From: Leptospira sp.
GTDB lineage: Bacteria > Spirochaetota > Leptospiria > Leptospirales > Leptospiraceae
Assembly: GCA_034439575.1 (NCBI GenBank)
Contig: JAWXAQ010000002.1
Location: forward strand, 128,001 to 192,000
Direction: 5' to 3'
DNA: 64,000 bases
A model generated the notes under the pieces. The model saw nothing but the letters and a program-made list of their open reading frames with translations. It was not told the DNA's origin and did no database searches. This document shows, in pieces, positions 591 to 49,911 of this stretch. A program made the position numbers and the translations under genes. Position 1 is the first letter of the stretch. Each line of letters begins with the position of its first letter.

Positions 591-1772
591 ATGGAACAAG
601 TTTTTATTCTCGGCGGACTGAGATCCGCTTTTGGTAGTTTTGGTGGCTCATTGAAGGATATGAGCGCTGTTGATTTGGGTGTAGAAGTGACGAAGGCAGC
701 ACTTTCAAAAGTCGGTATAGACCCGAACCTTATTGAAGAATCAATTTTTGGAAATGTGATTCCAACAGGAAAAGAAGGAATTTATTTAGCACGCCATATT
801 GGTTTGAAATCTGGTATGCCAGTCGCGATTCCTGCGCTTACTTTAAATAGGTTATGCGGTTCGGGAATGGAAACTGTCATCCAAGCGGCTAAGAAAATTA
901 TGTTAGGGGAAGCACATACAGTTCTTGCTGGTGGAGTCGAATCCATGAGTAACGCTCCATATGTTGTGCGTAATGCGAGATTTGGAGTTCGTTATGGAAA
1001 TACGGAATTTGAAGATTCTTTAGCGCAAGGTCTAACCGATATTTATGTAGAACTGCCAATGGGAATGACTGCTGAAAATCTAGCTGACCAATACAAAATC
1101 TCTCGTCAAGAACAAGATGATTGGGCCGCGATTTCACAAGAAAGAGCTGAAATAGCGACAAACAATGGTATTCTTAAAGAAGAAATTCATGCGATCACCA
1201 TCGCTGGAAAAACTCCAATCGTATTTGATAAAGATGAATTTATCAAAGGTAAGGCGAGTGCCGCAAAACTTGCTGGATTAAAACCTGCATTTAAAAAAGA
1301 CGGAACTGTGACAGCAGGAAATGCATCAGGTATCAATGATGGTGCTTCTGCTCTCATCGTTGCTTCTGAAAGTCAGGCAAAAAAATTAGGTAAAGAACCC
1401 TTAGCAATCGTTAAAGGATGGGGGCAAGTAGGTTGTGATCCTGCAAAAATGGGAATTGGTCCTGCTATAGCGATTCCAATCGCATTACAGAAAGCTGGAA
1501 TCACATTGAAGGATGTAGGGCTTATTGAAGTTAACGAAGCATTTGCGGCTCAATACTTAGCAGTTCAAAAAGAACTGGGTCTTGATCCCAAAATTACCAA
1601 CGTTAATGGCGGTGCAATCGCTATCGGACATCCGCTCGGTGCATCAGGAAATCGTGTCACTTTAACACTTGCACTAGAAATGAAAAGACGCGGCGTAAAA
1701 TACGGTGTCGCCTCACTTTGCATTGGTGGTGGACAAGGAATCGCGATCGTATTAGAAAATCCCAAAGCTTAA
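591..1772 (+). CDS. Acetyl-CoA C-acetyltransferase (thiolase)
   Basis: NRLCGSG active-site Cys, [13 protein letters not shown] and CIGGGQG motifs. Confidence 0.97.
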
Positions 1773-3388
1773 TGTATTTACTCTTCCCAGGTAGGCATCA
1801 CCTTTTAACAAGGTTCCAACATGAATATATCCGCATGTTGGAAAAAAATGGCCTCTGGGAAGCTGTAGACATCAACGGAAAACCTATCGGAGTTTCGGCT
1901 CTGATAACTTGCCTTGTATTTGCAGTTACTTCTGCGAATCACCACCAAACAAGAAGAAATCCCCTTCCTCTTTATCAGAGGGCGATGATGATTCAAGATT
2001 TTTCCTCAGATTTTTCCTTTCCATCCTATCTAGTCCCTATAGATGACATTGGCCAATCAGATAATTTTGCAGAATATACTTTAAAAAAAATAGAAGCAGA
2101 TACTGAATCGAACTTCTCACTTAACAAGGATAATACTATTGTTTTGTGTTCGTCCCCAGTTATGAAATACTACCAAGAATTAGGATTTCGAATTCTTCCT
2201 GTAGAAAGGTTACCTGGGATATCGGAAAATTTTGTCACCAAACAACCTTGGCAAATCTTGGAAGAAATTGCCTTAAGCGAAACACAAGAAAAAGTAAATG
2301 ATATCTATTCTAAATATGTTCATCCAGCAACTAAAAGATTGTGGACTGAATATGGCATAGTAAATCGTATTAGGTTTCTTTTTAAAGATAATCTAATCGG
2401 AGATGATGGTGATTTGACTGAATCCAGAGACTATAACACTTATGTCCGCGAAATGGATGAAATCGCCGAACTTAAATTTAACGAAACCAAAGAATTTATT
2501 CGACCAGGTCGTATTGGTGATATCGGCTGTGCTGTCGGTTCTTGGATTAAATTAGCCACCGAAGAACCAAGTTTATTTGAAAGTGATTTTTATGGTGTAG
2601 AAATTGCACGAAAACTTTTTGATATTTGCCAACAACGTAAAGAGAATGGTGACTTCCAAAATACAAATATATTTTTTTTAAGAAAAAATGCAGTCACTGG
2701 CCTCGTGTTTCCAAAAAATTCTATGAGAACAATTCATACTTCATCGTTAACTCATGAAATAGAATCTTATGGAAGTAGAGAAAATTTACTTTCTTTTATT
2801 AAAAATAGATACGATGAATTGTTAGATGGTGGCGTTTGGATCAATAGAGATGTGCTTGGCCCTGAAAACAAAGATGAAATCGTATATCTTTGGTTAAATG
2901 ATACCGATGGTCTTAATGAAATTCTACCTTCAGATTTTGTGGATAAAAATTTAAAAAAACAATATCTGGATTCACTTTCAACATACTCCCGTTTTTTTAT
3001 ATTTCAAAATGAATTTCGTAAGAAACATAATTATAATCTTTCCTTTACTCAAATTGAAATCGAAGGAAAAAAATATTTAAAACTGAAACTTAAAGACGCA
3101 TGCGAGTTTCTTTCAAAAAAAGATTATACTGACAATTGGGATAGTGAAATGCATGAATCCTTTTGTTTTTGGTCATTCTCTGAATGGAAAGAGGCAATGC
3201 GACAAAATGGTTTTCAAATTCTTGCTGGATCTTCGGCATATGCTAATCCATGGATCATTGAAAATCGCTATGTCTCTAAAGCAGAAATTTATACAACAAT
3301 TTCAAATAACCCTACCCAAAATGCCGATCTTATACGTATACCATTCCCGGTTACGAATATGCTTTTGGTTGGGGTAAAACAGGGTTGA
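1772..3388 (+). CDS. Fusion: NadM/cytidylyltransferase-like nucleotidyltransferase-fold domain + class I SAM-dependent methyltransferase
   Basis: Start reassigned to ATG 1772 (TAATG overlap with thiolase stop). N-term LFPGRHHLLT and TSANHHQTRRNPLPLYQRAMMI resemble NMNAT GRFQPFH / SAQxSHTxxNPFTxxERxxMI. C-term has IGDIGCAVGS (motif I) and FYGVEI. Confidence 0.7.
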   Translation: MYLLFPGRHHLLTRFQHEYIRMLEKNGLWEAVDINGKPIGVSALITCLVFAVTSANHHQTRRNPLPLYQRAMMIQDFSSDFSFPSYLVPIDDIGQSDNFAEYTLKKIEADTESNFSLNKDNTIVLCSSPVMKYYQELGFRILPVERLPGISENFVTKQPWQILEEIALSETQEKVNDIYSKYVHPATKRLWTEYGIVNRIRFLFKDNLIGDDGDLTESRDYNTYVREMDEIAELKFNETKEFIRPGRIGDIGCAVGSWIKLATEEPSLFESDFYGVEIARKLFDICQQRKENGDFQNTNIFFLRKNAVTGLVFPKNSMRTIHTSSLTHEIESYGSRENLLSFIKNRYDELLDGGVWINRDVLGPENKDEIVYLWLNDTDGLNEILPSDFVDKNLKKQYLDSLSTYSRFFIFQNEFRKKHNYNLSFTQIEIEGKKYLKLKLKDACEFLSKKDYTDNWDSEMHESFCFWSFSEWKEAMRQNGFQILAGSSAYANPWIIENRYVSKAEIYTTISNNPTQNADLIRIPFPVTNMLLVGVKQG

Positions 3389-6300
3389 ACCCAGAAATTG
3401 TCAGACATGCAGAAAACATAAAAAAAGTTTTCAAAAACAATTATCTTTTCGCCGACTTACAAGCGCAAGAGTTGGAAGAGATATATCCCTTCTTAGAAAT
3501 AAAAGTTTTTCGTGCCGGCCAATCCATCATCAAAGCGGGCCAAGGTACAAAGTTCATACACTTTGTGTTAAGTGGTAAAATCGGTATCCGATCCGCCGAC
3601 AAAGACGGTTCTCAAAAATTATTAGGCCAATTGGTAAAAGGAGAATCGATCGGTGAGAGATTATCTTTAACTGGTAAAACATCAGGACAAAACTATTTTG
3701 CATTGGAACCATTAGTATTAGTCATACTTCCTGTCACATCATTTCGAAAAATTATCAATAAATTTCCTTATATTGAAGATAGAGCAAAACATAGAGAAGA
3801 AGAACAAGAAAAGTTTCATTCCGTACGAAAACTTAGTTTTTTTCAAGAATTGGATCCAGAAGAAATAAGAAGTGTTTTGAAAGTCATAGAAACAATTTCT
3901 TGTGATACAAATGAATATTTATTTCATGAGGGCGATGAAGGAAATGCTGCCTATATAATCAAAACGGGAAAGATCCATATCCGAACGGAAAATCCCAAGA
4001 AATTAATTTCGATTATGAAACCGGGAGATATCCTCGGCGAAATTGCAATATTTCGAAAACAAAAAAGACTAGCTTCAGCTCTTGCCGCAGAACCATCGAT
4101 AGTTTATAAAATTCCTGGCGAATCTATAAAAAAATTATTAGGTGAATCGAAGGGAGGTAAACTTGAAGAAATTGTACAAGCTCGCCTCTTAAGGTATTCG
4201 ACATATAAAGCAAAAGAAAAAGAAGAGGAAACCTTAAAACCATTTGAATCAAAAAGATTCACCTTAAGACAAGGAGTGAATCAAATCATAGTCGATGAAG
4301 TTACCACAGAGTCTCCTATGTTAGTTGGTTTGGCTTGTGCAGAAATTGCTCTTCGAAATTATGATAAACCTCTGCCACCTAATTGGAAAATTCGAATTAA
4401 AAACGAATTATCCAGAAATCGAATGCCAGGCATATTTGAACTCGCAATCGAACTTGAAAAAATTGGATTTTTAACAAAACAATTGAGAATCCGTCCAAGC
4501 CAACTTGAGGATGTTAATTTTCCCTTTTTTGTAACAGATGAAGAAAATATACCTACTGCAATATATGCCATTGATGAAGATGAAGGGGGTGTCCTTCTTT
4601 CTCATCCATTGAAAGGAATTATAGAAATGGATCTCAAAACATTTTTACTTTCTTGGGACGGCATAATCCTGACTTTCATTCCATCACCTCCGGCAATGAT
4701 GGCAGATACAGGGCTATTTAGTTTTGTAAAAGAGATGAGGTCATTGTTTCGTCCTCATCAATCAGAACTTAGGTGGATATTCTCGACTACTCTAATTTCG
4801 GCAATCCTCGCTTTGTCTTTTCCCTATTTTCTTAGAGAAGTAGTAGATAAGGTATTGGTTTTTTCTGATCACAATTTTTTATTCACACTCTCTGCAGGCG
4901 TTGGCATCTCAATTATTTTCCAAGGATTCTTTTCTCTATTTAGAAATCTCCTCATGATGGGGGTTATGCAAAGATTAGAATATACTTTTCTTGTTCGCTT
5001 CTTTCAGCATATCCTTCGTCTGTCCTTGCCTGAGTTTAAAAAATTTGAGCCAAGTGATTATACGCAAAGGTTAAAGGAAAATCAAAAAATTCTCGAAATG
5101 GCTTCCCGAGCTGGAGTTTCACTATTACTTGATATAGTTATATTACCGATTTTTTTGACCGTACTACTTGTTTCTGATTTTCAACTGACATTAATTGGAG
5201 TAACATTTTTAATATTATATGCATTAATCGTAGTTAGAGTGTCTGCAAAAATAAGAGCACTCTCAGAACATACGTTTGAGTCAAAACGAAAAACTGTATC
5301 ATTTTTATTATCCCTGATTAGTGGGATCAGTATCATAAAAACTTCCACTCAAGAAACAATGTATCTGCTTAAAGGTATGAACGAAATTTCGAGAACCTTG
5401 TTATCAGTGTTTCGTGTGAATAAACGAACAAATTTTTTGCAATTTATGGGAAAGTTTTTTGAACAGATAGGAACACTTGCTGTTATGGGTTTTGGCATTT
5501 CTTCCGTTTTAGAAGAAAAAATTACTTTAGGAACCTATCTCGGCTTTCAAGTACTATTCGGCTTACTAATTGAACCTATCATCAGAATTTGTCGTATTTA
5601 TGATGATATTTTAGAAATGAGAGAATCAAGAAAAAGGTTAATGGAGATTTATTCTCTACCTGGAGAAGTGAATAGTATACGACCGTTTGGTGAATTGCCT
5701 CGTTTAGCAGGAAAAATACGATTAGAGAATGTTAGTTTTAGATATCAGGATTCTGAACCTGAAGTCATATCAAATATCAACATTGAAATACTAGCTGGTG
5801 AAAAAGTATCTATTGTCGGAAGAAGTGGTAGTGGCAAATCGACATTACTTAGATTGATGATGGGTACCTTGACCCCAATTGAAGGTAAAGTTTTAATTGA
5901 TTCTTTTGACTTATCCACTTTAGACCCAGAAGAATTAAGAATACAGTTTGGTGTTGTAGAGCAAACAGCTGTTTTGTTTTCTGGAACCATTGCGGAAAAT
6001 TTGTGTAAAAAAAATCCATCACTTTCCAGAGAGGCTATGCTTGCAGGAGCAAAACTAGCAGCTGTCGATCGATTTGTAGATAGATTTCCTTTTGGATATG
6101 AAACAAAACTTGGGGAAGGTGGTATCGGGCTGTCGGGTGGTCAAAAACAAAGACTAACGATTGCTAGGGCTCTCGTGACGAATCCAGCTATTTTATTTTT
6201 AGATGAGCCTACATCTGCTTTAGATGCAGAGTCTGAATCTTTCGTACAAAGCCAATGGGAAAGTATGTTTATAGATCGAACCGTAGTACAGGTATCACAT

Positions 6301-6459
6301 CGATTGCACTCTACTGTAACAGCAGATAAAATCATTGTCATGGATCATGGTAAAATTGTAGAAGTGGGGAGTCATTCTGAGTTAATTAATGCCAAGGGTT
6401 TTTATTATCAATTATTTCCAACCAATGAGGTAAATCAAAATGAATCTGAAAAAATTTAA
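3385..6459 (+). CDS. HlyB/PCAT-type ABC transporter with two N-terminal cNMP-binding domains and C39-like domain
   Basis: Two CAP-like repeats (LFHEGDEGNAAYIIKTG...GEIAIF...RLASA), GLACAEIAL C39-like segment, TM region, GRSGSGKST, LSGGQKQR, LFLDEPT, SHRL. TTG start overlaps upstream TGA. Confidence 0.9.
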   Translation: MNPEIVRHAENIKKVFKNNYLFADLQAQELEEIYPFLEIKVFRAGQSIIKAGQGTKFIHFVLSGKIGIRSADKDGSQKLLGQLVKGESIGERLSLTGKTSGQNYFALEPLVLVILPVTSFRKIINKFPYIEDRAKHREEEQEKFHSVRKLSFFQELDPEEIRSVLKVIETISCDTNEYLFHEGDEGNAAYIIKTGKIHIRTENPKKLISIMKPGDILGEIAIFRKQKRLASALAAEPSIVYKIPGESIKKLLGESKGGKLEEIVQARLLRYSTYKAKEKEEETLKPFESKRFTLRQGVNQIIVDEVTTESPMLVGLACAEIALRNYDKPLPPNWKIRIKNELSRNRMPGIFELAIELEKIGFLTKQLRIRPSQLEDVNFPFFVTDEENIPTAIYAIDEDEGGVLLSHPLKGIIEMDLKTFLLSWDGIILTFIPSPPAMMADTGLFSFVKEMRSLFRPHQSELRWIFSTTLISAILALSFPYFLREVVDKVLVFSDHNFLFTLSAGVGISIIFQGFFSLFRNLLMMGVMQRLEYTFLVRFFQHILRLSLPEFKKFEPSDYTQRLKENQKILEMASRAGVSLLLDIVILPIFLTVLLVSDFQLTLIGVTFLILYALIVVRVSAKIRALSEHTFESKRKTVSFLLSLISGISIIKTSTQETMYLLKGMNEISRTLLSVFRVNKRTNFLQFMGKFFEQIGTLAVMGFGISSVLEEKITLGTYLGFQVLFGLLIEPIIRICRIYDDILEMRESRKRLMEIYSLPGEVNSIRPFGELPRLAGKIRLENVSFRYQDSEPEVISNINIEILAGEKVSIVGRSGSGKSTLLRLMMGTLTPIEGKVLIDSFDLSTLDPEELRIQFGVVEQTAVLFSGTIAENLCKKNPSLSREAMLAGAKLAAVDRFVDRFPFGYETKLGEGGIGLSGGQKQRLTIARALVTNPAILFLDEPTSALDAESESFVQSQWESMFIDRTVVQVSHRLHSTVTADKIIVMDHGKIVEVGSHSELINAKGFYYQLFPTNEVNQNESEKI

Positions 6460-7540
6460 ATCTTTACGTGAATCAGATTCAAATTGGGAGTCCATGCATT
6501 CATCATCATATTATGATGAACTACTAAAGCATCCAGCTCCAAATTGGAATCAGAGAGGTATATTCTTAATCACTTTCTTTTTTCTTATATTTCTAGTATA
6601 TTTAATTTTCGGAAAGGTAGATATCATTATTCCTTCCTTTGGAACCTTGCGTCCAAAAGGAAATTATTATGTGGCTGAAGCTTTAGAGACGGGAACAGTC
6701 ACGAATATTTATGCAAAACCAGGTGATTTTATCAAAAAAGGAGAACCTCTAGTAGAACTCGAATTTTCAGAACAACAAATTGAGTTATCTAAAGACTCGA
6801 ACAATTTGCAATATGAGGAAGTTCGTCTGCGAAGGTTAATTCAAAACAGAAGAGAAGCAGAAAAAATATTAAAGAACTTAGATTCTAACTTAGAAACGAA
6901 TCCTGGATCTGAATTATCAGGTATGTTATTAAATAAGTTTGTATCTTTAAAAAAAGCCTATATGGATTTCAAAAATGGCATAGGGGCAAAATTTTTATAT
7001 GATCAAAGTTTATTGGAATTCAACGAAGAATATATAAATCTAAAAGATGAAATTTTAAAAGAACAAAATACTATTTCTAGTCTTAAGGGAGATACTAAGT
7101 TAAAAAGAGAGCGCGTTGATAATGCAATATTACGTATGCCTTTTTCTGGTTATGTGGGAGCCTTACTTGTAAATAATATAGGACAAAATGTAACGAGAGG
7201 TCAAACCTTGGCTGAGTTAGTTGAAGAAAATCAACCTTTAGAAGCTTTCGTAGAAATTAAAAATAAAGATATTGGAAGTATCAGAGTGGGAATGGATGCG
7301 ATCATTAAAATTAGAGCATTCCATCAAAACGATTTCGGAGTGTTGGATGGCAAAGTGGAACAAATTGTACCAAATGTCAAAGAAAAGGATACTTTTTCAG
7401 TTGTATTATCTATCAAGGAACAATCACTCAAACAAAATAATGAAGAGTTTCATCTATTTCCAGGATTAAAAGTAGAGGCAGATATCATAACCAATCGTAG
7501 TCGTCTATTTGAAGTTTTGTTCTTCCGAGCTAAAATATAA
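6440..7540 (+). CDS. HlyD-family membrane fusion (periplasmic adaptor) protein
   Basis: Single N-term TM helix, lipoyl half-motifs (GTVTNIYAKPGDFIKKGEPLV; LRMPFSGYV), coiled coil, FPGLKVEADI C-term. Confidence 0.92.
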   Translation: MNLKKFKSLRESDSNWESMHSSSYYDELLKHPAPNWNQRGIFLITFFFLIFLVYLIFGKVDIIIPSFGTLRPKGNYYVAEALETGTVTNIYAKPGDFIKKGEPLVELEFSEQQIELSKDSNNLQYEEVRLRRLIQNRREAEKILKNLDSNLETNPGSELSGMLLNKFVSLKKAYMDFKNGIGAKFLYDQSLLEFNEEYINLKDEILKEQNTISSLKGDTKLKRERVDNAILRMPFSGYVGALLVNNIGQNVTRGQTLAELVEENQPLEAFVEIKNKDIGSIRVGMDAIIKIRAFHQNDFGVLDGKVEQIVPNVKEKDTFSVVLSIKEQSLKQNNEEFHLFPGLKVEADIITNRSRLFEVLFFRAKI

Positions 7541-7548
7541 ATATTCCT

Positions 7549-10500
7549 ATGGAAAGTATTAGCGATGCTTTAAAAAAAGAATTACTTCAAGAAGATATTA
7601 TTAATCATCTTACTTCAGAAGAATTTAAAACGTTCATAGAATTATTTAAACAAAGAACACTTACCACTAACGAAAGAATTGAAAGCAAAGGAACTTCATC
7701 AGTTCCACTACTTCTTGTTATGTCTGGTAGAATTCAAATTCATTTTCACCAAAATAATAGTGACCTATTCGTAAAATCTTTAACTGAAGGGCAATTTTAC
7801 GGAATCAGTGAGCTTGCTCTTGGATTATTAAATAGTATAACCTTTATTGCAGATGAAAACAGTAGTCTATTATTAATTCCTCAGGATCAATTGTTAGCTT
7901 TCTTTGAAGCTACTCATCATCGTAAAAAGATATGGAATGAGTTTATTGATAATGTAAAATTACGAGATGAACTGAGAATACATCCCTTTTTTAGAAAATT
8001 GGCAAAACACGAATTAGTTGAATTATCGCATTTGGTAATTAAAAGAAATATTTCAAAGGGCAAAGTTTTAATCAAGGAAGGAAGTAAATCAGATTCTTTG
8101 TTTTTTGTTTATTCTGGAAAATTTAAAATTACTAAATCGACTTGGTCGGATAATTTTTTTTCGTTTGTGGAATCAGGTTCAGTGATCGGAGAAATGGGTG
8201 TTATCGAACGCAAAGAAAGAAATGCCACAGTCACCGCAGAAGTGGAAAGTATTGTTTATGAGTTAACAGCGAAAGATGCAGAAACTTTTTTTAAAAAATC
8301 CGAAAGTCTATTTGTTACTCTAAAATCTTTAACTACTAGTAGAAAAATAAATCATGAAGAAAAAGAATCGGAAGAATCTATTACTCACGAATCAGATGAT
8401 TTTTTTGAAGATATCTTACATTTTTTACCTGAAAGTAGTTTCCCTCCGAAAATAAAAAATATTAAATCTTTTCCCATTTTTATTGAAGATTCAAGTGACC
8501 AAACTGCATTTGCTTGTCGCCAAATGTTGTTAGCTTATTGGGGTTATGATAAAAAATTGGAAACCGATGATAATAATTTTCCAAAAACGGATTGGGAAGT
8601 TTCGATGCAACATTGGAAGGATACTTTTTCTGATATAGGACAAACATTGGTCATAGATTTGCTTCGATTTCGAAAGGAACTCGAAAGACGCATATATATA
8701 GTTAGGTGGGAGACGAATAAGTTTGTTATAGTATTGCCCAAAAAAGATAATACTATAAAAATTATAGATCCTTCAACTGGATTCAAAGAAATAACAGAAA
8801 GTGAATGGAATGTAAAGACCGGAAAACATGCTGTTTTATTTATTCCAAAAATAAAACCAAAAATTAACTTAATTCCGTCCTTTGATTATTTTCCTGGTTT
8901 ATATCCGTTTTTTAAACAATATTTGCCGTTTTTATACTCAGGCATACTTGCTACATTTCTAATCAAAGCTTTAGAGATCACTCTTCCTTTAATCAATTTA
9001 TATTTAATTGATAATGTGTTAATCAGAGAAAAACAAGATTTTTTTTATCCCATACTTATTAGTGTAGCAACAATTAGTATTTCTCAAATTGTTCTTTCGT
9101 ATTTTAGAAGTAATGTGGTGAATTTTTCAACAACTAGGGTTAATCAAGCAATAATTATAAGATTCTTAGAAAAACTTTTGTCATTGCCTCTCACTTATTT
9201 TGAAAATCATCGCAAAGGGGAAATATTACAAAGATGGGACGAAATCGAAGGGGTAACGAATTTTTTTTCTGAACAAGGTACATTGAAATTTTTGGATTGG
9301 ATTTTTGGACTTATTGTATTTTTGATTTTTCTTTTTTTATCACCAATACTACTGAGTGTGATCATATTTTTTCTTATACCCGAAATTTATATTGTTTCTC
9401 GATTGAGTCCATTAATAGAAAGAGAAACCAAAAAAGAATCGTTACGATCAGCCGATACATTGAGTTATTTTATAGAGACTATCAACGGAAATGAAACCGT
9501 GAAAAACTTAGGATCTGTTTCTGTCCAACGTTGGGATTTTGAAAAACGATTAACATCTCAATTAAATGCAGAAGGCAAGAGAATGTTTTATACTAATATT
9601 CTCGATTCATCTTCACTTACATTTAAACTTCTAACAAACGTAAGCATTTTGGTATTAGGAACATTTTTAATTTTTCAAAATCAAATTACTTTAGGAACCT
9701 TATTTGGAATCATCGGTTTGATTGCTTACGTTAGATCTCCTATGATTTCGCTAGTACAAGATGGAGTACGATACCAAAAAGCAAAACTAGCCTGGAAACG
9801 ACTTATGGATTGGGAAAAATTGGATTCGGAATATACTTCCCAGTCAAAGATCAGTAAAGTTGAAATTCCAGACATACAAGGTGATTTAGTTTTAAAAGAT
9901 GTTTCATTTAGTTACAAAATTGGAAAACGAAACTTCGAAATACTTAAGTTAAACGTTAAATTTGAAACTGGCAAAAAATACGCTTTTGTTGGTCGAAGTG
10001 GTAGTGGAAAATCTAGCATTGTAAAATTAATCTTAGGTTTATACGAAAGAAGTGATGGAGATATATTGTTAGATGGTGTTTCTATGGAAGAAATTTGGTT
10101 ACCTTCATTTAGGAACCGAGTTGGAGTTTTATTCCAAGAAAATCCAATTCTCCTTGGGACGATTAGAGAAAATATTACACTGGCCCGACCAGATTCGACT
10201 TTATCCGAAGTAGTTGAAGCATCCAAGTTGGCATTGTTTCATGAAGATGTCATTGCATTACCGTTAGGTTATGATACCGAGCTTAGCGAAAAAGGAGTCA
10301 TTCTTTCAGCTGGCCAAAAACAAAAATTAGCTTTTGCTAGGTTATTTTTGCAGAAGCCATCGCTTTTGGTTTTGGATGAGCCAACTTCATCGATGGATAG
10401 TGAATCTGAAGCAAAAATATTTTCAAATTTGCATCGTGTCTTTTCGGATAAAACAATCATCACAGTGGCGCACAGGTTAGAAACCGTTAGAAGATATGAT

Positions 10501-10614
10501 CAGATTTTTGTTATGGAACATGGAAAATTGGAAGAAAGAGGAACACATAAAGAATTAATCAATACAAAAGGAATTTATCATTTGCTTCATTCTAAGCAAG
10601 AGGCGATCCGATAA
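7549..10614 (+). CDS. Second HlyB/PCAT-type ABC transporter with two cNMP-binding domains and C39-like domain
   Basis: GEMGVIERKERNATV cNMP cassette, AFACRQMLLAYWG C39-like segment, TM region, GRSGSGKSS, LSAGQKQK, LVLDEPT, AHRL. Confidence 0.9.
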   Translation: MESISDALKKELLQEDIINHLTSEEFKTFIELFKQRTLTTNERIESKGTSSVPLLLVMSGRIQIHFHQNNSDLFVKSLTEGQFYGISELALGLLNSITFIADENSSLLLIPQDQLLAFFEATHHRKKIWNEFIDNVKLRDELRIHPFFRKLAKHELVELSHLVIKRNISKGKVLIKEGSKSDSLFFVYSGKFKITKSTWSDNFFSFVESGSVIGEMGVIERKERNATVTAEVESIVYELTAKDAETFFKKSESLFVTLKSLTTSRKINHEEKESEESITHESDDFFEDILHFLPESSFPPKIKNIKSFPIFIEDSSDQTAFACRQMLLAYWGYDKKLETDDNNFPKTDWEVSMQHWKDTFSDIGQTLVIDLLRFRKELERRIYIVRWETNKFVIVLPKKDNTIKIIDPSTGFKEITESEWNVKTGKHAVLFIPKIKPKINLIPSFDYFPGLYPFFKQYLPFLYSGILATFLIKALEITLPLINLYLIDNVLIREKQDFFYPILISVATISISQIVLSYFRSNVVNFSTTRVNQAIIIRFLEKLLSLPLTYFENHRKGEILQRWDEIEGVTNFFSEQGTLKFLDWIFGLIVFLIFLFLSPILLSVIIFFLIPEIYIVSRLSPLIERETKKESLRSADTLSYFIETINGNETVKNLGSVSVQRWDFEKRLTSQLNAEGKRMFYTNILDSSSLTFKLLTNVSILVLGTFLIFQNQITLGTLFGIIGLIAYVRSPMISLVQDGVRYQKAKLAWKRLMDWEKLDSEYTSQSKISKVEIPDIQGDLVLKDVSFSYKIGKRNFEILKLNVKFETGKKYAFVGRSGSGKSSIVKLILGLYERSDGDILLDGVSMEEIWLPSFRNRVGVLFQENPILLGTIRENITLARPDSTLSEVVEASKLALFHEDVIALPLGYDTELSEKGVILSAGQKQKLAFARLFLQKPSLLVLDEPTSSMDSESEAKIFSNLHRVFSDKTIITVAHRLETVRRYDQIFVMEHGKLEERGTHKELINTKGIYHLLHSKQEAIR

Positions 10615-10625
10615 TAAAAATAGGT

Positions 10626-11975
10626 ATGCTTACCATTCTTAGAATCATCCTGATTTGCAATTTGTTTTCAATGACGCAACTCATGGCTGAGTCTGTTGAT
10701 TTCTATGATTTACCGAAAATTGTGGGAGAGAAATCCTATCAGCTTAAATTAAAAGAAATTGAGATTCAAAAAAAGAAAATTGATATGGATACCCGAAACA
10801 TTCGGTATCTCCCTACGATGGATTTTGAACATTCCCCTTTTTTTGAAAAATTACCATCTGAAGGCTTTGATAGAAAAGGTTTATATTCATCTTTAAATTT
10901 AAATTGGAATTTCCAAGAACAAGGAAATGTATTTTTAACGAATCTAATTATGGAATTAGAATATGAAAGAATACTATTGGAATACAAGGCATTATATCAA
11001 AAAGAAATATTTGACCAAGCGTTCCAATATTGTGAGACACTTAAACTTTTAGCATTTTACGATTATGACTTTTCGAATGAATCGGATGCAGAAAAACAAT
11101 ACCAAACTATACAAAAATTATACAAACAAGGCATAGAATCATATCTTGTTACCCAAAACTCTAAAGTAGATTATTTGTTTTATAAATACAATGCAATTAA
11201 ATCAAAGTTAGATCAACAGAAAAGTCAATCTCTCTTCCGTAGAAAATTTTTATTGAAAGATGTGACTCTTAAAGATATTCCAGAAAAAGAATTCTCTGTT
11301 TTGCCTGTGAATGAAACAATGTCGAATTATGAAAAAAATCTTTCAGCTATAAACTTTGATATAGTACTTTCTATTAACCAAGTCAAAATCCTCGAAGTGG
11401 AAAAGCAGGTTCGGTTTAATGAATTGTGGGTTCCTGATTTTTTTGTAAATTTGTATAACAATAATTCCAAACAAACAATCTCTGGTATCAATGGAAGTTT
11501 TTCACAGTCAGAATATCTTTATGATTATTCTAGAAATGATTTTTCTTTATATGCAAAAAATCCAGATTCTTTTTCATCAACTGGTGCAAGTTTTGGAATT
11601 CGTGTCCCTTTATTTGATAGATGGATTTCTAAAAATGAATTTGATAAATCAAAAATTGAAATTAAATTTGCAAAGTCGCAGTCTGAATTTTTAAGAGAAA
11701 ATACTGCATTATTTTTATACGAATTGCTACAACAACATAATAATCTGATCGAATTATACAATATTTCGTTAGAGAGTAAAAAGACAGCAGATGAAAATTT
11801 TCAAATAATGGAAAGGGCATATAAAACTGGCTCTGCATCTATCGTAGAATTGCAGACTGTTGATAGACGTCAAAGAGAGGTTATGCGAAGTGCAATCCAG
11901 AATCGATATGATCTGATACAGTTGCGTTTACAAATCGGTCTCCTCCTTGGAGATACGATGAAGTTTTTAAATTAA
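10626..11975 (+). CDS. TolC-family outer membrane efflux protein
   Basis: Signal peptide, two helical repeats (LYKQGIESYL; AYKTGSASIVELQTV), GIRVPLFD strand, and position after ABC/HlyD genes. Confidence 0.8.
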   Translation: MLTILRIILICNLFSMTQLMAESVDFYDLPKIVGEKSYQLKLKEIEIQKKKIDMDTRNIRYLPTMDFEHSPFFEKLPSEGFDRKGLYSSLNLNWNFQEQGNVFLTNLIMELEYERILLEYKALYQKEIFDQAFQYCETLKLLAFYDYDFSNESDAEKQYQTIQKLYKQGIESYLVTQNSKVDYLFYKYNAIKSKLDQQKSQSLFRRKFLLKDVTLKDIPEKEFSVLPVNETMSNYEKNLSAINFDIVLSINQVKILEVEKQVRFNELWVPDFFVNLYNNNSKQTISGINGSFSQSEYLYDYSRNDFSLYAKNPDSFSSTGASFGIRVPLFDRWISKNEFDKSKIEIKFAKSQSEFLRENTALFLYELLQQHNNLIELYNISLESKKTADENFQIMERAYKTGSASIVELQTVDRRQREVMRSAIQNRYDLIQLRLQIGLLLGDTMKFLN

Positions 11976-11978
11976 GTA

Positions 11979-12749
11979 TTACTTTTGATTTGTTTCTAGA
12001 TTATTATTTTTAATAATAATATTTTTGTTTTTTTCGGTATCAAAAATAATTTGGTATCCATTTTCAATTTTGTTTAATTGGAAATAATGAGCTATTGATT
12101 TTCCGCATATATCAATGATCGAAATTTCATTTAATATATCTGGAGAATTTGAAAGTAATGATATATTGTGATGAAATTTTATTTGAGCACAGTTTTTATG
12201 ATATGGAAAAATTGTTTGTAACATATCTTTAATTAGTTTTTCATTATATTCGATTCTGGGTCTACGAAATTCCTCAGGAAAAAGTCCAGTTTCAAATTTT
12301 CCGATGATAAATATTGTTCCATAGAAATCTATTAATTTTCCATTTCCATGAAATAATCCATTTTGATAATTTCCTTCATATCGTACACCGTCAGGGAAAA
12401 TTTCTATTCCAAAACCATTGGGCATTCCATTTTCAAAAATGCCTTCAAAAGATCTGCCGTCGCGTAAGGTGGAAGTACATTTTCCTTCTGCTTTCCCATC
12501 TCGCCATGTCCCAACAATTTTTTTACCTAGACTAGATGTCATTTCACCGTATCCATTTGGTATTCTATTTTTTAACATACCCTTGAATGTAGAACCATCA
12601 GAATAAGAAATAACTCCTTCTCCATTTTCACATTCACCTAAAATACAATTTGGAATATCTTGACTAAAAACATTTCCAGATATTAATATATAACATATAA
12701 TAAGTGTTATATGGCATTTTATTATTTTATGATTCAAATAATTAAACAT
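11979..12749 (-). CDS. MORN-repeat protein, secreted
   Basis: Signal peptide then repeats such as YEGNYQNGLFHGNGKL, FEGIFENGMPNGFGIE. Confidence 0.85.
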   Translation of the reverse strand: MFNYLNHKIIKCHITLIICYILISGNVFSQDIPNCILGECENGEGVISYSDGSTFKGMLKNRIPNGYGEMTSSLGKKIVGTWRDGKAEGKCTSTLRDGRSFEGIFENGMPNGFGIEIFPDGVRYEGNYQNGLFHGNGKLIDFYGTIFIIGKFETGLFPEEFRRPRIEYNEKLIKDMLQTIFPYHKNCAQIKFHHNISLLSNSPDILNEISIIDICGKSIAHYFQLNKIENGYQIIFDTEKNKNIIIKNNNLETNQK

Positions 12750-26615: not shown

Positions 26616-27974
26616 ATGATACCAATTTCAGAAGTAATTGAAATTTTACGGACTGTGGATTTATTCGCAGAGATACCTCATGAGTCTATCCACGAAATTG
26701 CTTCTTCATTGAAAGAAGATCATTTCAAAACTGGGGAAAGTATCATTCAAAAAGGTGATTCTGGAACATGTATGTACATTATTTACTCTGGGCGAGTTTT
26801 CGTACATTTTGATGACCAAAAAGTCGCAGAGATTGGCCAAAGGCAAACATTCGGCGAATTTTCTCTTTTAAATTCGGAACCGAGAAATGCATCTATAAGT
26901 GCACTTGAAGATACTCATTTGTTGAGATTGGACCAAGCTGATTTTTATGCAATTATGGGAAATAGCACTGAATTTATGCGCGGTGTGATTCGAATATTAA
27001 TTGTTCGCCTAGCAGAGCAAAACAATGAATTGATTGATACTTTAAAGAGAAGAGAAGTTGAGCTAACTCGTAAAGTAGAAGAACAAACCAAAGATTTGAT
27101 CAGTGCTATTTTGGAAATACAATCTCAGAATGATAATTTAGAAAAATACAACAAAGAAGTAATTGAACAGAAAAAAGAAATCGAAAGAAAGAATCATGAT
27201 ATAACGGAAAGTATACGTTATGCGAGAACGATTCAACAATCCATACTTCCAAGTCGAGAATTGATTTCTTGGGCATTGCCAGAATCTTTTATCCTTTTTA
27301 AACCTCGCGATGTTGTGAGTGGGGATTTTTATTGGTTCACTTCAAAGTCAGTTATAATTGAAAATATAGAAGAGACTGTCGTTGTCATCGCAGCGGCTGA
27401 CTGTACAGGCCACGGAGTTCCTGGCGCCTTTATGTCTATGATCGGAAATAGTTTGCTCAATGATATTGTCAATGCACGTGGTGTATATGAACCAGATGAG
27501 ATTTTGAATTTATTGCACAGAGGTGTTAGGTATTCCTTGAACCAAGAAATGACAGAAAGTCGTGATGGAATGGATATATCTTTGTGTACAATTCACTTAG
27601 AAAAAAAGATCATCAAATATGCAGGGGCAATGAACTCACTCTATTATATGCAAAATAATGTTTTAACAGAGATAAAAGCAGATCGTAGATCAATTGGTGG
27701 GACACAAAAAGAAGGCCAGCGAATTTTCACCAAACATGAAATAGATGCAAACACCCCATCCACATTTTATCTAACAACTGATGGTTATTTAGATCAATTT
27801 AGCGGTCTCGATCATAAAAAATTTATGTCAAAAAGGTTTAAGGATCTAATCGAAGAAATTCATAGCAAACCAATGGCGGAACAAAAAATTATTTTTGATA
27901 CAAATATGAAGTCATGGATGGATGGCTGTGAACAAATAGATGATATTTTAGTGATAGGTGTAAAAATTCCTTAG
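26616..27974 (+). CDS. cNMP-binding domain + coiled coil + SpoIIE/PP2C Ser/Thr phosphatase
   Basis: FGEFSLLNSEPRNAS cassette; VSGDFYW, ADCTGHGVPGA, DGMD, TDGYLDQF, QIDDILVIG. Confidence 0.92.
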   Translation: MIPISEVIEILRTVDLFAEIPHESIHEIASSLKEDHFKTGESIIQKGDSGTCMYIIYSGRVFVHFDDQKVAEIGQRQTFGEFSLLNSEPRNASISALEDTHLLRLDQADFYAIMGNSTEFMRGVIRILIVRLAEQNNELIDTLKRREVELTRKVEEQTKDLISAILEIQSQNDNLEKYNKEVIEQKKEIERKNHDITESIRYARTIQQSILPSRELISWALPESFILFKPRDVVSGDFYWFTSKSVIIENIEETVVVIAAADCTGHGVPGAFMSMIGNSLLNDIVNARGVYEPDEILNLLHRGVRYSLNQEMTESRDGMDISLCTIHLEKKIIKYAGAMNSLYYMQNNVLTEIKADRRSIGGTQKEGQRIFTKHEIDANTPSTFYLTTDGYLDQFSGLDHKKFMSKRFKDLIEEIHSKPMAEQKIIFDTNMKSWMDGCEQIDDILVIGVKIP

Positions 27975-46305: not shown

Positions 46306-49300
46306 ATGAATATGCTAATAAAATTACCGGCGTTTACTTATTTGTTATTATTGATTGGATTTTCTTTCCTCCAATGTAAAGAAAAAACCCCCTCGGCTAA
46401 TTCATCTTTTGTGGCAGTTCTACTTGCCATTGGTGGGGCCACTACCAGTGAAACGTCTGATACATCTAACGGAGAGAGTACGACGGCTACGGTTACTGCA
46501 TCTGGAGGGACCGTTTCCTCTTCGGATGGATCCATTAATCTGCAAATTCCTGCGGGGGCGCTGACTGATACTCGGCAAATCACAATCAGTACAAATTCAG
46601 CTCCTATAGGGAATGTCCCCGAAGGATATGAAATCGTCACAAAAATTTTAAAGTTCGAACCCTCAGGACTTGTCTTTCAAAAACCAGTTACTTTAACTTT
46701 AAATTATGATCAAAAAGATATGGAAGAAGGAGGAATCGAAGAACGGACAGTTCGATTTTTCTATATAAAGAATGACTCAACTTTAGAATCCATGCAGAGA
46801 AATTCTATAGATTTAGCAAATAACAAATTTGTAAGCGAGATCACTCATTTTTCTTTTGGTGCAGGGATTCGTACTCGTATTAAATCTGTTAGTTTAGGAA
46901 TCATAACTTCACCGACTCCTGTAAACAACGTTTCTAACCAATTGATCTCAGATTTAAACAATTTTTCAAATTACGGTTATGGAAGTGTGAGCCAATTCTT
47001 TCAGGCAAACCATTCCACTTTCATTGCATTATTAACTCAAGTAGTTGCTATCCTAGGATATGATCCAATTAGTACTGCGTTTCCGAATGAAGATTTTGAT
47101 GGAGATGGAAATGTCAATTCTGAAGATCCGATCATTCCATCTACTGGCCCACAACTATCGATCGTTTCGACTGGTTCATTGCTTATCAGCCAAAATGCAA
47201 ATGCGATTAACAATAGTCAGTTTATTTGGCAATCAAACAAAGCTGGCACTTATACAATTCGTTCTGGCGGTACAAATTGCACGACAGGAACTTCTGTGGC
47301 TACGGGTTCAACCCACATTGGCAATCAAATAACATTTGGACCATTTTCAGCAACGTCACTAAATCTCGGGACAAATACATTTCGCATCTGTGTAATAAGT
47401 TCAAATATCACGGGTTCAGCTCTACTCACTTTTACTCGTGATGATTCCCTTCCGACGGCGAGTATCAATCCATCGGCCGGGAGTTATGGAACCATCCAAA
47501 ATGTATCACTAGAATGCGGTGATACTGGCGGAGCTGGTTGTTCCAAAATAGCCTACACCATTGACGGATCAAATCCCTCCTTTAGCAATGCATGTAATAT
47601 CGGCATCGGCACTTTGTATTCAACGCCAGTCCAAACACCAGATTCTAGTATAACGACGATTAAATATCGATCCTGTGATTTGGCTGGAAATGTTTCTTCC
47701 GTTTATTCGCAATCGTATACTATAGATTCAATTCTCCCAACGATTACGATCAATTCTGTAACGCCTGGTACGGTGATCAAAGGTTCGATTTCTCCACAAT
47801 TCAATTGGGTTTCCAATAGGGATGGGAATTATACAATCAAAATTGGTACAAATTGTACCACTGGCACACAAGCTCTAGGTACAAATGTGAGTGGCACAGC
47901 AAATTCCGGTTCTGCGATCACTAGCTCTCTTTCTACTGGTTCACAATTAAGCGATGGTTCAAAAAAAATCAATATTTGCGTCACCAATTTGGTCGGTGCT
48001 TATGGTGAGTCGTCGACTACATTAACAGTTGATAGTGTGAATCCAAGTGTATCTGTCTCTCCCGTTTCAGGAATGTATGGTACCCAGCAAACGATTACCG
48101 CGACTTGTTCCGATGCACTTTCTGGTTGCCAGAAGGTAGTTTATACGACAGATGGATCTGATCCTAATGTGGACGATACAGGTACTATAACAAACGGAAC
48201 TCTGTATTCGGGGAGTCTTGCGGCACTCAATTTAGCGTCTGTTACATATAAGTTTTTGGCCCGTGATTTGGCTGGAAATACTTCTTCCATCACAAGTGTC
48301 ACTTATACTCAGCCAGACACGACACCGCCGACAGTTTCAATACAGAATGTTCGTAACAAAGGTCGGATAGAAACAGGTTTTTTGTTAGGTGGATCATCGG
48401 ATAACGAAGCAGTATCTAAAGTCGAAGTTTCATTAGATGGAGGTACCTATGCACTGGCAACAGGAACTACTTCTTGGAAATATAAATTACCTACTGGATC
48501 AAATACTTGGAGGGATGATTCCACACATACCATCAGTGTTAGAAGTGAGGATAGTTCTGGGAATGTTTCTTTGGTCACAAATATTTCCGTCCGCAAAGGA
48601 TTAAATAAAGACATCAATGGCGATGGATATTGTGATTTGGTGATTCAGGGTTATACTACTGAAGCAGGTCGGTTATTTATTTTTCATTCGAGTGGAACAA
48701 ATGGAATCACACAAACAGGCGCATCGGCGGCAAATAATATTATCTCAGGACTAGCTCCTGGAAACGGTTTATCCTTTGGCTTCTATATGAGTATTGGCGA
48801 CTTAAATGGCGATGGATATGCAGATATTGTGTCAGGTGAAAGTAATTATGCATCCAATTCTGGAAGACTTTATATTTTTTATTCTACAGGGACAAATGGG
48901 ATTACTGTTAGTTCCGCCACATCAGCCGATGCCATCATCGAAGGGGAAACGGGAAGTGAATTTGGTTTAATTCCGGCCATAGGTGATTTGAATGGGGATG
49001 GTTATGGGGATATCGTGACTGGGGCTCAGAGATATAATTCGAATTCTGGCCGAGTGTATATTTTTTATTCACCGGGAAGTGGAAATTTCTCTAATATCAA
49101 TGCAACTGCCGCCTCGCAGATTATAGACGCTAATAGCACAAATAATACCCTTGGCGCAAGCGTCGCTACGGGTGATATTAATGGAGATGGATATTCCGAT
49201 TTAGTCGTCGGGGCTCCATCCTTTTCGAGTGCTTCCGGGAGAATTTATGGTTTTATTTCTTCGGGAAGTGGAGGGATAGCAACTAACACAGTAAATAGTG

Positions 49301-49911
49301 GTACATCCTTTGTTTTGGATGGAGAAATTGCCAATAACGCATTGGGTTTTTATGTGAATACTGGAGATATGAATGGCGATGGCTATATGGATGTGATTTC
49401 AGGATCGCCTACCTATGACAATAGCAAAGGACGAGCCTATGTCTTTCATTCCAATGGAAGTTCTGGAATTAACTCCCTCGGTGCGGCATCAGCTAACTCT
49501 ATAATTACAGGCGAAGTTAATAGCGGATTATTAGCGTATAGGAATAGCGTTGGGGATATCAATGGGGATGGTTATACTGATCTAATCACTGGAGCTTATA
49601 TAGTTAACAAGGGATATGCGTTTTTATCGGCTGGAAGTAGTGGGATCACTATTACCAGTGCCGCAAACGCCTCTACTCGATTAAATTGTGATACAAATAC
49701 AACTTTTGCGAATACGACAGGCGGTTTCGATTTGAATGGGGATGGATTTTATGATATGGTTGTGAGCGAGATTGGAGCCCCAAATGGAGGCGCTGTGCAA
49801 ATTTTTTATTCTTCTGGAGCTGGGGGAGTAACAGCCACAAATAAATCTGGAGCTTCGAGAACTATTTCTGGGGATAATCTAGGAAATGGTTTTGGAAGAG
49901 TCGCAAGGTAA
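46306..49911 (+). CDS. Large surface lipoprotein: ZU5 + duplicated Ig/chitobiase-C-like modules + 7 FG-GAP (integrin-alpha-like) repeats
   Basis: Lipobox-like SFLQC; ZU5 (GGTVSS...LQIPAGAL...FQKPVTL...THFS); YTIDGSNP/YTTDGSDP and DLAGN modules; seven DxNGDGxxD motifs. Confidence 0.85.
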   Translation: MNMLIKLPAFTYLLLLIGFSFLQCKEKTPSANSSFVAVLLAIGGATTSETSDTSNGESTTATVTASGGTVSSSDGSINLQIPAGALTDTRQITISTNSAPIGNVPEGYEIVTKILKFEPSGLVFQKPVTLTLNYDQKDMEEGGIEERTVRFFYIKNDSTLESMQRNSIDLANNKFVSEITHFSFGAGIRTRIKSVSLGIITSPTPVNNVSNQLISDLNNFSNYGYGSVSQFFQANHSTFIALLTQVVAILGYDPISTAFPNEDFDGDGNVNSEDPIIPSTGPQLSIVSTGSLLISQNANAINNSQFIWQSNKAGTYTIRSGGTNCTTGTSVATGSTHIGNQITFGPFSATSLNLGTNTFRICVISSNITGSALLTFTRDDSLPTASINPSAGSYGTIQNVSLECGDTGGAGCSKIAYTIDGSNPSFSNACNIGIGTLYSTPVQTPDSSITTIKYRSCDLAGNVSSVYSQSYTIDSILPTITINSVTPGTVIKGSISPQFNWVSNRDGNYTIKIGTNCTTGTQALGTNVSGTANSGSAITSSLSTGSQLSDGSKKINICVTNLVGAYGESSTTLTVDSVNPSVSVSPVSGMYGTQQTITATCSDALSGCQKVVYTTDGSDPNVDDTGTITNGTLYSGSLAALNLASVTYKFLARDLAGNTSSITSVTYTQPDTTPPTVSIQNVRNKGRIETGFLLGGSSDNEAVSKVEVSLDGGTYALATGTTSWKYKLPTGSNTWRDDSTHTISVRSEDSSGNVSLVTNISVRKGLNKDINGDGYCDLVIQGYTTEAGRLFIFHSSGTNGITQTGASAANNIISGLAPGNGLSFGFYMSIGDLNGDGYADIVSGESNYASNSGRLYIFYSTGTNGITVSSATSADAIIEGETGSEFGLIPAIGDLNGDGYGDIVTGAQRYNSNSGRVYIFYSPGSGNFSNINATAASQIIDANSTNNTLGASVATGDINGDGYSDLVVGAPSFSSASGRIYGFISSGSGGIATNTVNSGTSFVLDGEIANNALGFYVNTGDMNGDGYMDVISGSPTYDNSKGRAYVFHSNGSSGINSLGAASANSIITGEVNSGLLAYRNSVGDINGDGYTDLITGAYIVNKGYAFLSAGSSGITITSAANASTRLNCDTNTTFANTTGGFDLNGDGFYDMVVSEIGAPNGGAVQIFYSSGAGGVTATNKSGASRTISGDNLGNGFGRVAR

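Follow-up and report, generated by a model that had tools for sequence, protein, structure and literature searches.

The 64,000-nucleotide stretch of Leptospira sp. DNA analyzed here (assembly GCA_034439575.1, contig JAWXAQ010000002.1, positions 128,001 to 192,000; hereafter, the window) contains, at positions 3385 to 11975, the genes for ABC1, HlyD, ABC2, and TolC, which form a complete and conserved type I secretion gene set. The exporter is a variant of the known "long-type" ATP-binding cassette (ABC) exporters, which combine cyclic nucleotide-binding (CNB) and C39 domains. The gene immediately upstream codes for a two-domain enzyme, a putative transferase referred to as TF, and the initial annotation of the window had joined TF and the exporter in a self-contained unit for modification and export. 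Our comparisons lead to a different reading, to which we assign a probability of about two in three: the exporter, with its CNB domains and dead C39 domains, and TF, a separate enzyme linked to NAD metabolism, are neighbors and not one machine. Neither requires the other; TF was lost repeatedly while the exporter stayed.

The distribution of the two families was determined in 114 genomes of 14 genera (40 other genomes of the window's genus, g1, and 73 genomes of 13 other genera) with the N-terminal 460 residues of ABC1 and TF as the queries. Full-length matches to the ABC1 region were confined to the window's genus, where they were present in 35 of the 40 other genomes and in the window's own; the 13 other genera gave partial matches to a single CNB domain alone, in 11 genomes. 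TF was also confined to the genus (25 of the 40 genomes, counting a remnant in genome G075). Both TF and ABC1 were present in 21 of these 40 genomes, ABC1 without TF in 14, and intact TF without the exporter cassette in 3 (G052, G076, and G077). The G075 remnant is limited to 68 residues, contains an internal TAA codon (C58:143827-144030), and is not accompanied by the cassette; TF seems to have decayed in this genome. Neither TF nor the cassette was detected in G072, a genome that is 67% complete. On a tree of the N-terminal part of ABC1 (36 rows, quick IQ-TREE), the presence of TF changes at least four times.

In all six TF-less loci that were fetched, the thiolase gene and ABC1 are separated by a spacer of 53 to 327 nucleotides that is free of TF remnants. 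Downstream of the thiolase stop codon, five of the six spacers (loci L083 to L088) contain the inverted repeat CTTCCGAG ... CTCGGAAG, and the same five contain a conserved ATCTGCTTAGGACTCAGTCGAT-like motif ahead of ABC1. Hairpin and motif are both missing from the sixth spacer (L086, 53 nucleotides), and the motif is not present in the window. Such shared elements would be expected of an independent regulatory region, and they may represent a terminator and a regulatory site specific to the exporter. Two open frames of 1584 and 1552 residues (G069 and G059) were considered as candidate TF-ABC1 fusions and rejected, as a TAG stop codon lies directly before the ABC1 ATG.

The neighborhood of TF was explored in a wider sample, in which 229 relatives were found and the best 80 loci were examined with a simple open reading frame (ORF) caller and BLAST clustering of the neighboring genes. 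Nine loci were from Leptospira and 71 from other bacteria (Cytophagales, Chitinophagaceae, two non-Leptospira spirochete metagenome-assembled genomes, and others). TF follows the thiolase gene in all nine Leptospira loci and is itself followed by ABC1, HlyD, ABC2, and TolC in seven of them (49 to 84% identity). TolC follows ABC2 in the seven cassette-bearing Leptospira loci with 72 to 83% identity; L009 ends at a contig end. Since the same gene order and tight junctions recur in seven of the nine loci, the arrangement is not due to chance. In L. idonii (L003) and Leptospira sp. 'Mane' (L004), TF is followed by other genes instead of the exporter. In L003, these are a nucleotidyltransferase/HepT-like pair of the toxin-antitoxin type (L003:11678-12338) followed by a DJ-1/PfpI gene. 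The thiolase gene lies immediately 5' of TF or ABC1 in all Leptospira loci examined; it is a constant left neighbor and is not part of the exporter. The exporter cassette was found in none of the 71 non-Leptospira loci; the ABC gene that lies 4 kb away in one of them (L068) is unrelated.

NAD-salvage genes (encoding NrtR, NAMPT, or NadM-like proteins) were present near TF in 56 of the 71 non-Leptospira loci. By family, an NrtR-type Nudix regulator was encoded in 51 loci, a nicotinamide phosphoribosyltransferase (NAMPT/NadV) in 49, a NadM-like Nudix protein in 46, a phosphoribosyl pyrophosphate synthetase (Prs) in 22, an ADP-ribosylglycohydrolase in 19, Tpt1/KptA in 15, and an NAD-kinase-like protein in 14. 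An immediate neighbor of TF belonged to the NAD-associated set in 48 of the 68 loci for which a TF ORF was called, and in soil Bacteroidota TF is located within nrtR-nadM-nadV-prs clusters. This context and the fold of the protein (see below) lead us to propose that the substrate of TF is probably a pyridine or adenine nucleotide from the metabolism of NAD or ADP-ribose. The nrtR-prs-nadV genes of Cytophaga are a described NAD-salvage regulon, listed without a TF gene in the excerpt of PMC2330246. Further companions of TF in Bacteroidota are an SPFH/Band-7 protein followed by the NAD-kinase-like protein (14 loci each, e.g., L015:15186-17115) and a 141-residue protein without a Pfam family (22 loci, e.g., L011:5893-6318).

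These comparisons bear directly on the alternative in which the product of TF, a modified nucleotide-like compound or peptide, is exported by the cyclic nucleotide-gated pump, the two acting as one functional unit. Its appeal comes from the junctions, since the TF stop and ABC1 start codons overlap in the window, TAG and ATG abut in L081 and L082, and TF adjoins ABC1 in all 21 genomes that have both; in addition, searches of the genome for RTX and leader families found no cargo gene elsewhere. Such a unit is difficult to reconcile with the 14 genomes of the genus that have the pump without TF and the 3 that have intact TF without the pump, with the repeated changes in TF presence on the ABC1 tree, with the conserved hairpin and motif that TF-less genomes have before ABC1, and with the non-Leptospira loci, which have no pump and mostly lie beside NAD-salvage genes. 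The known cargo of HlyB- and PCAT-type pumps with C39 folds, moreover, is polypeptide. We consider this alternative very improbable. The gene-neighborhood comparison thus returned the rare co-occurrence of TF and the exporter that the initial annotation had itself named as an outcome speaking against the unit. In the reading of TF and the exporter as neighbors, the tight junctions reflect a shared position, not a shared pathway, and TF would be a passenger gene between thiolase and ABC1 that was lost repeatedly, with the exporter being retained.

TF is probably cotranscribed with the thiolase gene and ABC1 in Leptospira. The thiolase gene is the first of a same-strand array, and its junction with TF is a TAATG at 1770 to 1774 (a longer TF frame is possible from a TTG at 1718). 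The TF stop and ABC1 start codons overlap as TTGA at 3385 to 3388, ABC1 and HlyD overlap by 20 nucleotides (6440 to 6459), and gaps of 8 nucleotides (7541 to 7548) and 11 nucleotides (10615 to 10625) separate HlyD from ABC2 and ABC2 from TolC. Between positions 400 and 12900, a scan found 58 promoter-like sites (51.3 ± 8.9 in shuffled sequences) and 13 terminator-like sites (6.2 ± 2.3 in shuffled sequences), none of the latter tellingly placed at gene ends, and its outcome says little about operon structure. The six-gene same-strand layout of the initial annotation, with its coordinates, overlaps, and gaps, agrees with the ORF list and the sequence. Its gene contents (an ABC protein with cyclic nucleotide-binding domains, HlyD, a second such ABC protein, and TolC) were recovered with Pfam and NCBIfam, and its assignments of a complete type I secretion gene set, of CNB domains in both ABC proteins (Pfam, and the fold for ABC1), and of a spirochete host (nearest named relative, Leptospira ognonensis) also hold. 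Features of the locus are listed in Table 1. The MORN-repeat match that follows the cassette in the window is absent past tolC in the five Leptospira loci that reach this position (L001, L002, L005, L008, and L021).

Table 1. Genes and domains of the exporter locus, by position in the window (aa, amino acids)
Feature	Positions	Strand	Remarks
Thiolase (acetyl-CoA C-acyltransferase)	591-1772	+	Pfam Thiolase_N/C; TIGR01930, 477 bits
TF ("transferase," two-domain enzyme, 538 aa)	1772-3388	+	ATG at 1772
TF N-domain (aa 1-204)	1772-2383	+	Archaeal-type nicotinamide mononucleotide (NMN) adenylyltransferase-like (cytidylyltransferase-like) fold
TF C-domain (aa ~210-538)	2399-3385	+	Class I S-adenosylmethionine-dependent methyltransferase fold
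ABC1 (exporter subunit A, 1024 aa)	3385-6459	+	TTG start overlapping TF stop
ABC1 CNB-A (aa ~10-130)	3412-3774	+	Degenerate phosphate-binding cassette, no Arg
ABC1 CNB-B (aa 135-275)	3787-4209	+	Canonical-looking; Gly-Glu...Arg cassette kept
ABC1 C39-like domain (aa 301-436)	4285-4692	+	Val in catalytic Cys column, no catalytic His
ABC1 transmembrane domain (aa 465-731)	4777-5577	+	Pfam ABC_membrane
ABC1 ATPase domain (aa 796-944)	5770-6216	+	Pfam ABC_tran
HlyD-family membrane fusion protein (366 aa)	6440-7540	+	Pfam HlyD_3, 54 bits
ABC2 (exporter subunit B, 1021 aa)	7549-10614	+	Domain architecture as ABC1
ABC2 CNB-B (aa 166-250)	8044-8298	+	Best Pfam cNMP_binding stretch; cassette GE...RNATVTA
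ABC2 C39-like remnant (aa 313-420)	8485-8808	+	Pfam, 20.8 bits; PF03412 genome scan, 25.2 bits
ABC2 ATPase domain (aa 800-947)	9946-10389	+	Pfam ABC_tran
TolC-type outer membrane factor (449 aa)	10626-11975	+	Last gene of cassette; Pfam OEP, 50 bits
MORN-repeat gene	11979-12749	-	Next gene after cassette, convergent on tolC

The predicted fold of TF bears out its initial description as a fusion of a nucleotidyltransferase fold to a methyltransferase. An AlphaFold (AF2) model with a mean predicted local distance difference test (pLDDT) score of 86.7 consists of two domains. The N-domain superimposes on the NMN adenylyltransferase of M. jannaschii (1f9a_A) with a Z score of 17.1, a root mean square deviation (rmsd) of 2.7, 162 of 164 residues aligned, and 20% identity. 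A profile search also retrieved 1f9a (E = 0.0014), and the language-model neighbors of TF include CTP_transf_like at 0.85 (an Atlas feature, to be taken as a lead only); the Pfam search did not match PF01467. H/TxGH and ISSTxxR-type sequences are the usual ATP-binding motifs of NMN and nicotinic acid mononucleotide adenylyltransferases. The residues invariant in the TF family are P6, G7, R8, H9, T13, and Q16, followed by T53, S54, N56, H57, T60, R61, R62, N63, and P64. The C-domain matches 3g5l and others in Foldseek (E = 1e-9) and many methyltransferases with VIA Z scores of 17 to 19 (19.0 for 7v6h_B and 18.8 for 1xxl_A). The domain has the seven-strand architecture of class I methyltransferases and a Gly-rich SAM loop, in which the stretch DIGCAVG is invariant (G249 D250 I251 G252 C253 A254 V255 G256), and the methyltransferase matches of TF in Pfam are all under the cut-offs. 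The family comprises at least 1642 matches at an E value of 0.001 or better among the candidates scored, with 50 to 56% identity between Leptospira and Bacteroidota and many invariant columns. Homologues were found in L. ognonensis (75% identity), L. idonii, L. ilyithenensis, L. biflexa, and others; the named species carrying TF homologues or the cassette are presumably saprophytic. Literature searches found no paper on the TF family, nothing for the L. biflexa locus tags LBF_0345-0348 and LEPBI_I0357/8, and nothing specific on Leptospira type I secretion together with cyclic nucleotides. In PADLOC, a search for defense systems, TF had no match, and the ABC proteins were matched solely via their generic CNB (Pycsar effector) and ATPase parts.

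The assignment of the exporter to type I secretion is based on Pfam matches to all of its components: ABC_membrane (83.6 and 93.8 bits) and ABC_tran (110.5 and 96.2 bits) in the two ABC proteins, HlyD_3 in HlyD (cut-off, 22.2), and OEP in TolC (cut-off, 22). Among NCBIfam models, the HlyB-type TIGR01846 is the best match of the ABC proteins (445.7 and 376.9 bits) and does not reach its cut-off of 725.55. The NHLP models are second best, with 392.2 bits for TIGR03796 (cut-off, 853.3), 358.4 for TIGR03797 (709.4), and 36 for TIGR03794 (156.2); HlyD scores 149.7 bits with TIGR01843, under the cut-off of 208.65. As read from the translations, the ATPase motifs look complete in both ABC proteins; in ABC1, we take the readable motifs to be Walker A, the signature, the Walker B Glu, and the H-loop.

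Each ABC protein contains two cNMP_binding stretches in Pfam (116 bits in ABC1 and 83 bits in ABC2). Structure prediction covered the N-terminal 460 residues of ABC1 (pLDDT, 82.7), in which CNB-A resembles the PycTIR CNB domain 8jsk_B (Z score, 17.9) and CNB-B resembles the cGMP-bound CNB-B of protein kinase G (PKG) II, 5bv6_A (Z score, 19.9; rmsd, 1.6; 141 residues aligned). The tandem is similar to protein kinase A regulatory subunits (Z score of 19.1 to Bcy1). Alignment of eight orthologues of each ABC protein revealed that the first CNB domain has no cassette Arg in either subunit and that the second keeps Gly-Glu...Arg (...GEIAIF...KRLASA... in ABC1 and ...GEMGV...RNATVTA... in ABC2), a cassette typical of true cyclic nucleotide binders. 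G218, E219, and R228 of ABC1 are invariant in eight distant homologues. The window's genome, which is 99.98% complete, has a very rich cyclic nucleotide signaling repertoire, since it encodes 36 class III cyclase domains. One of these is within the window, in a 7TMR-DISM class III adenylate/guanylate cyclase (51839 to 53935, minus strand); the window also encodes a protein combining cNMP_binding with SpoIIE, a PP2C phosphatase domain (26616 to 27974, plus strand).

The C39-like domains, by contrast with the "peptidase-type" exporters to which the initial annotation had likened the ABC proteins, lack the catalytic residues in both. Peptidase_C39 scores 28 bits in ABC1 and 20.8 bits, just below the cut-off of 22, in ABC2. 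Residues 301 to 436 of ABC1 superimpose on PCAT1 (8vp3_A) with a Z score of 16.3, an rmsd of 2.2, and 130 aligned residues, and also match LahT150 (6mpz_A; Z score, 16.1) and ComA (5xe8_A; 15.4). With three relatives containing a canonical C39 domain as the alignment reference (P0287, P0296, and P0150; 110 to 127 bits), the catalytic Cys and His were found to be absent from ABC1 and ABC2, as they are in eight of eight orthologues of each protein. The catalytic Cys column is occupied by Val or Ala in ABC1 and those relatives nearer to it, whose conserved Cys sits in a second, noncatalytic column; ABC2 has Thr (Thr/Ser in this column) and no His. A weak pairwise alignment with ComA had pointed to C318 of ABC1 as the catalytic Cys, also without a His; the family alignment was preferred. 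Thus, the pump would not perform canonical cleavage of double-glycine leaders. According to a PF03412 scan, ABC1 and ABC2 contain the sole C39-like domains of the genome.

More distant relatives provide a view of the origin of the two subunits. A word-index search with the ABC1 N terminus matched only Leptospira proteins (at least 53% identity). An exhaustive search with the same region returned 11992 matches, mostly CNB domains alone, and included over a dozen proteins, each about 1000 residues long, that matched all 460 residues at 22 to 29% identity. Two CNB domains, C39, and ABC were present in 10 of the 11 such relatives scanned, the remaining one having C39 under the threshold. The second-best exhaustive match was a metagenomic protein of 3779 residues (P0151) with 12 cNMP_binding stretches and three adenylate kinase domains. 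A metagenome scan with an alignment of three distant relatives returned 80 loci, of which two (L091 and L092) match the whole N-terminal region. L091 has the order SurA-like rotamase, MauE-like protein, ABC_A, HlyD, ABC_B, and OEP. The cassette is GC rich (L091:8146-19287) and has a sigma-54 activator with an FHA domain upstream.

ABC1 and ABC2 are about 25% identical. ABC1 scores 468 bits with L091_A versus 403 with L091_B, ABC2 scores 445 bits with L091_B versus 296 with L091_A, and these best-match relations are reciprocal. Each protein being nearer its L091 counterpart than the other, ABC1 and ABC2 are, as judged from their sequences, old paralogues, and the A/B pair would predate Leptospira. 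The C39 domain of L091 is weak in A (51 bits) and canonical in B (119 bits). This one full-length distant locus suggests that subunit A was already noncatalytic at that stage and that the ancestor of ABC2 in Leptospira was a catalytic B subunit, the active site of which was later lost. Such a history fits the published picture of cyanobacterial long-type exporters (excerpts of PMC3140520) and the NHLP three-gene cluster.

In the exporter that we propose, ABC1 and ABC2 would most likely form an A/B heterodimer docking to HlyD and TolC, and export would be gated by a nucleotide bound to CNB-B, either a cyclic one or one of a related kind, such as ppGpp. The dead C39 domains would most likely serve as cargo-docking modules by analogy with HlyB, whose C39-like domain binds cargo and keeps the His and loses the Cys. 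No cargo gene is present in the cassette or adjoining it in any Leptospira locus. The window also encodes, at 46306 to 49911 on the plus strand, a large, probably surface or secreted protein of 1201 residues with FG-GAP repeats, CHB_HEX_C, and ZU5.

The nature of the ligand and of the cargo may differ from this proposal in two ways. First, the cargo could be an unprocessed protein or peptide encoded elsewhere, with a signal not of the RTX type, the dead C39 domains being its receptors and ppGpp or GTP, rather than cAMP or cGMP, the physiological ligand, in line with what has been proposed for HetC. The degenerate CNB-A of both subunits and the retention of the C39 fold without catalytic residues are in agreement with this possibility, as is the binding of ppGpp, GTP, and GDP by the CNB-containing N-terminal domain of HetC (excerpts of PMC10986499). 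HetC, in which the peptidase is active and the CNB domain is single, is not a close model, however, and CNB-B keeps its Gly-Glu...Arg cassette, has a cGMP-bound PKG domain as its best structural match in ABC1, and belongs to a genome with 36 cyclase domains. We regard this variant as unlikely.

Second, the cassette could mediate the tripartite efflux of a small molecule, lipid, or glycolipid, in the manner of MacAB-TolC or DevBCA-TolC, with the C39-like domains as relics. The loss of the catalytic residues in both subunits, the short HlyD (366 residues), the lipid-related neighbors (thiolase and alpha/beta hydrolases), the absence of a cargo gene in or beside the cassette, and the absence of RTX and double-glycine leader families from the genome would all be accounted for. 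The best family matches are nevertheless to HlyB-type (445 bits) and bacteriocin-type (392 bits) exporters, and the C39-like domain is well conserved in eight orthologues with a confidently predicted fold, which argues for a retained function. In addition, the L091 sister cassette has retained, like the cyanobacterial bacteriocin clusters in excerpts of PMC3140520, a peptidase that looks active and a rotamase of the SurA type. Small-molecule or lipid efflux therefore appears doubtful, and more so than a polypeptide cargo with another ligand.

Several observations weigh against the independence of TF and the exporter or against parts of the mechanism proposed for them. TF abuts ABC1, with a gap of at most 13 nucleotides or an overlap, in all 21 genomes that have both, and this tightness is kept across 54 to 100% identity of the ABC1 N terminus, which hints at selection for coexpression. 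The heterodimer, although most likely, is a prediction from the pairing of the genes. Neither an RTX repeat protein nor the Nif11 and class II double-glycine leader families were found in the window's genome; the NHLP leader was not found either, in a search that was uninformative, its control giving no match anywhere. The ABC proteins and HlyD are under the curated NCBIfam cut-offs of every type I secretion family. An H/TxGH motif is difficult to recognize in the N-domain of TF; the family shows PGRH..LT..Q. NAMPT and NrtR are both absent from the window's genome, and the NAD-salvage context of Bacteroidota therefore does not explain the role of TF in Leptospira. Finally, the CNB domain of HetC bound ppGpp (Kd, 59 µM), GTP, and GDP and not cAMP or 2-oxoglutarate in excerpts of PMC10986499, and the ligand of the exporter thus need not be cAMP or cGMP.

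The finding that the TF family lies in an NAD-salvage context is the most useful by-product of the analysis, and this very conserved uncharacterized family is a concrete candidate for an undescribed step of NAD or ADP-ribose metabolism. The exporter would extend to spirochetes the nucleotide-sensing ABC exporters known mainly from cyanobacteria, and in an unusual form: a pump made of an A/B pair, with peptidase domains that are retained in both subunits although dead and with a degenerate sensor next to an intact one in each. L. biflexa, a tractable nonpathogenic laboratory saprophyte that has both TF and the cassette, would be a convenient natural system for the gating of protein secretion by second messengers and for the role of dead C39 domains. 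A far-fetched variant, to which we give hardly any weight, is that TF of TF-positive Leptospira makes a methylated pyridine or adenine nucleotide, originating in NAD metabolism, that is exported by the heterodimeric pump or sensed by the degenerate pockets of CNB-A. If the TF-pump pairing were functional, it would add to cyclic nucleotide-gated secretion an optional route, based on nucleotides, for extracellular signaling or detoxification, and in species without TF the pump would handle its core cargo alone.

With respect to known systems, the TF N-domain shares its fold and the pattern ...SA..S.T..NP... with the archaeal NMN adenylyltransferase MJ0541 (1f9a) and NadM, from which TF differs by its low identity (20%), by the lack of an evident H/TxGH motif, and by its fusion to a methyltransferase. 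The exporter resembles the HlyB-HlyD-TolC hemolysin system in its tripartite composition (ABC protein, fusion protein, and TolC) and in its dead N-terminal C39 fold. HlyB is a homodimer without CNB domains; the Leptospira ABC proteins have lost both the Cys and the His, and no RTX protein was found in the Leptospira genome. The NHLP/Nif11 cluster (TIGR03796 with a peptidase, TIGR03797 without, and the HlyD protein TIGR03794) also has two paralogous ABC genes together with HlyD, an arrangement that implies a heterodimeric pump; the Leptospira proteins score far under the cut-offs of these models and have CNB domains in addition.

The initial comparison with HetC-type exporters of cyanobacteria was apt, judging from excerpts of PMC10986499 and PMC3140520. 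Cyanobacterial bacteriocin clusters encode long-type CAP_ED-C39 ABC exporters with HlyD and a SurA-type rotamase, and some encode a further CAP_ED ABC protein, which lacks the peptidase (excerpts of PMC3140520). The order of CNB domain, C39 fold, six-helix membrane domain, and ATPase within about 1000 residues is common to the Leptospira subunits and to these exporters, including HetC of Nostoc PCC 7120, as are the HlyD gene in the cluster and, in some clusters, the second CAP_ED-bearing ABC gene (same excerpts). The function of HetC requires its CNB domain and also C347 and H420, according to the excerpts of PMC10986499. Unlike these exporters, the Leptospira subunits have two CNB domains each and are both devoid of the catalytic Cys and His, the cassette has no precursor peptide or SurA gene nearby, the TolC gene is within the operon, and the host is a spirochete. 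The L091 cassette has a B subunit with a canonical C39 domain (119 bits, with visible Cys and His motifs), a longer HlyD (501 residues), and SurA-like rotamase and MauE-like genes upstream, in a locus without TF or thiolase. It is like the Leptospira cassette in having the four genes in the same order, two ABC proteins that each combine two CNB domains, a C39 fold, and ABC, and a subunit A in which the C39 domain is already degenerate.

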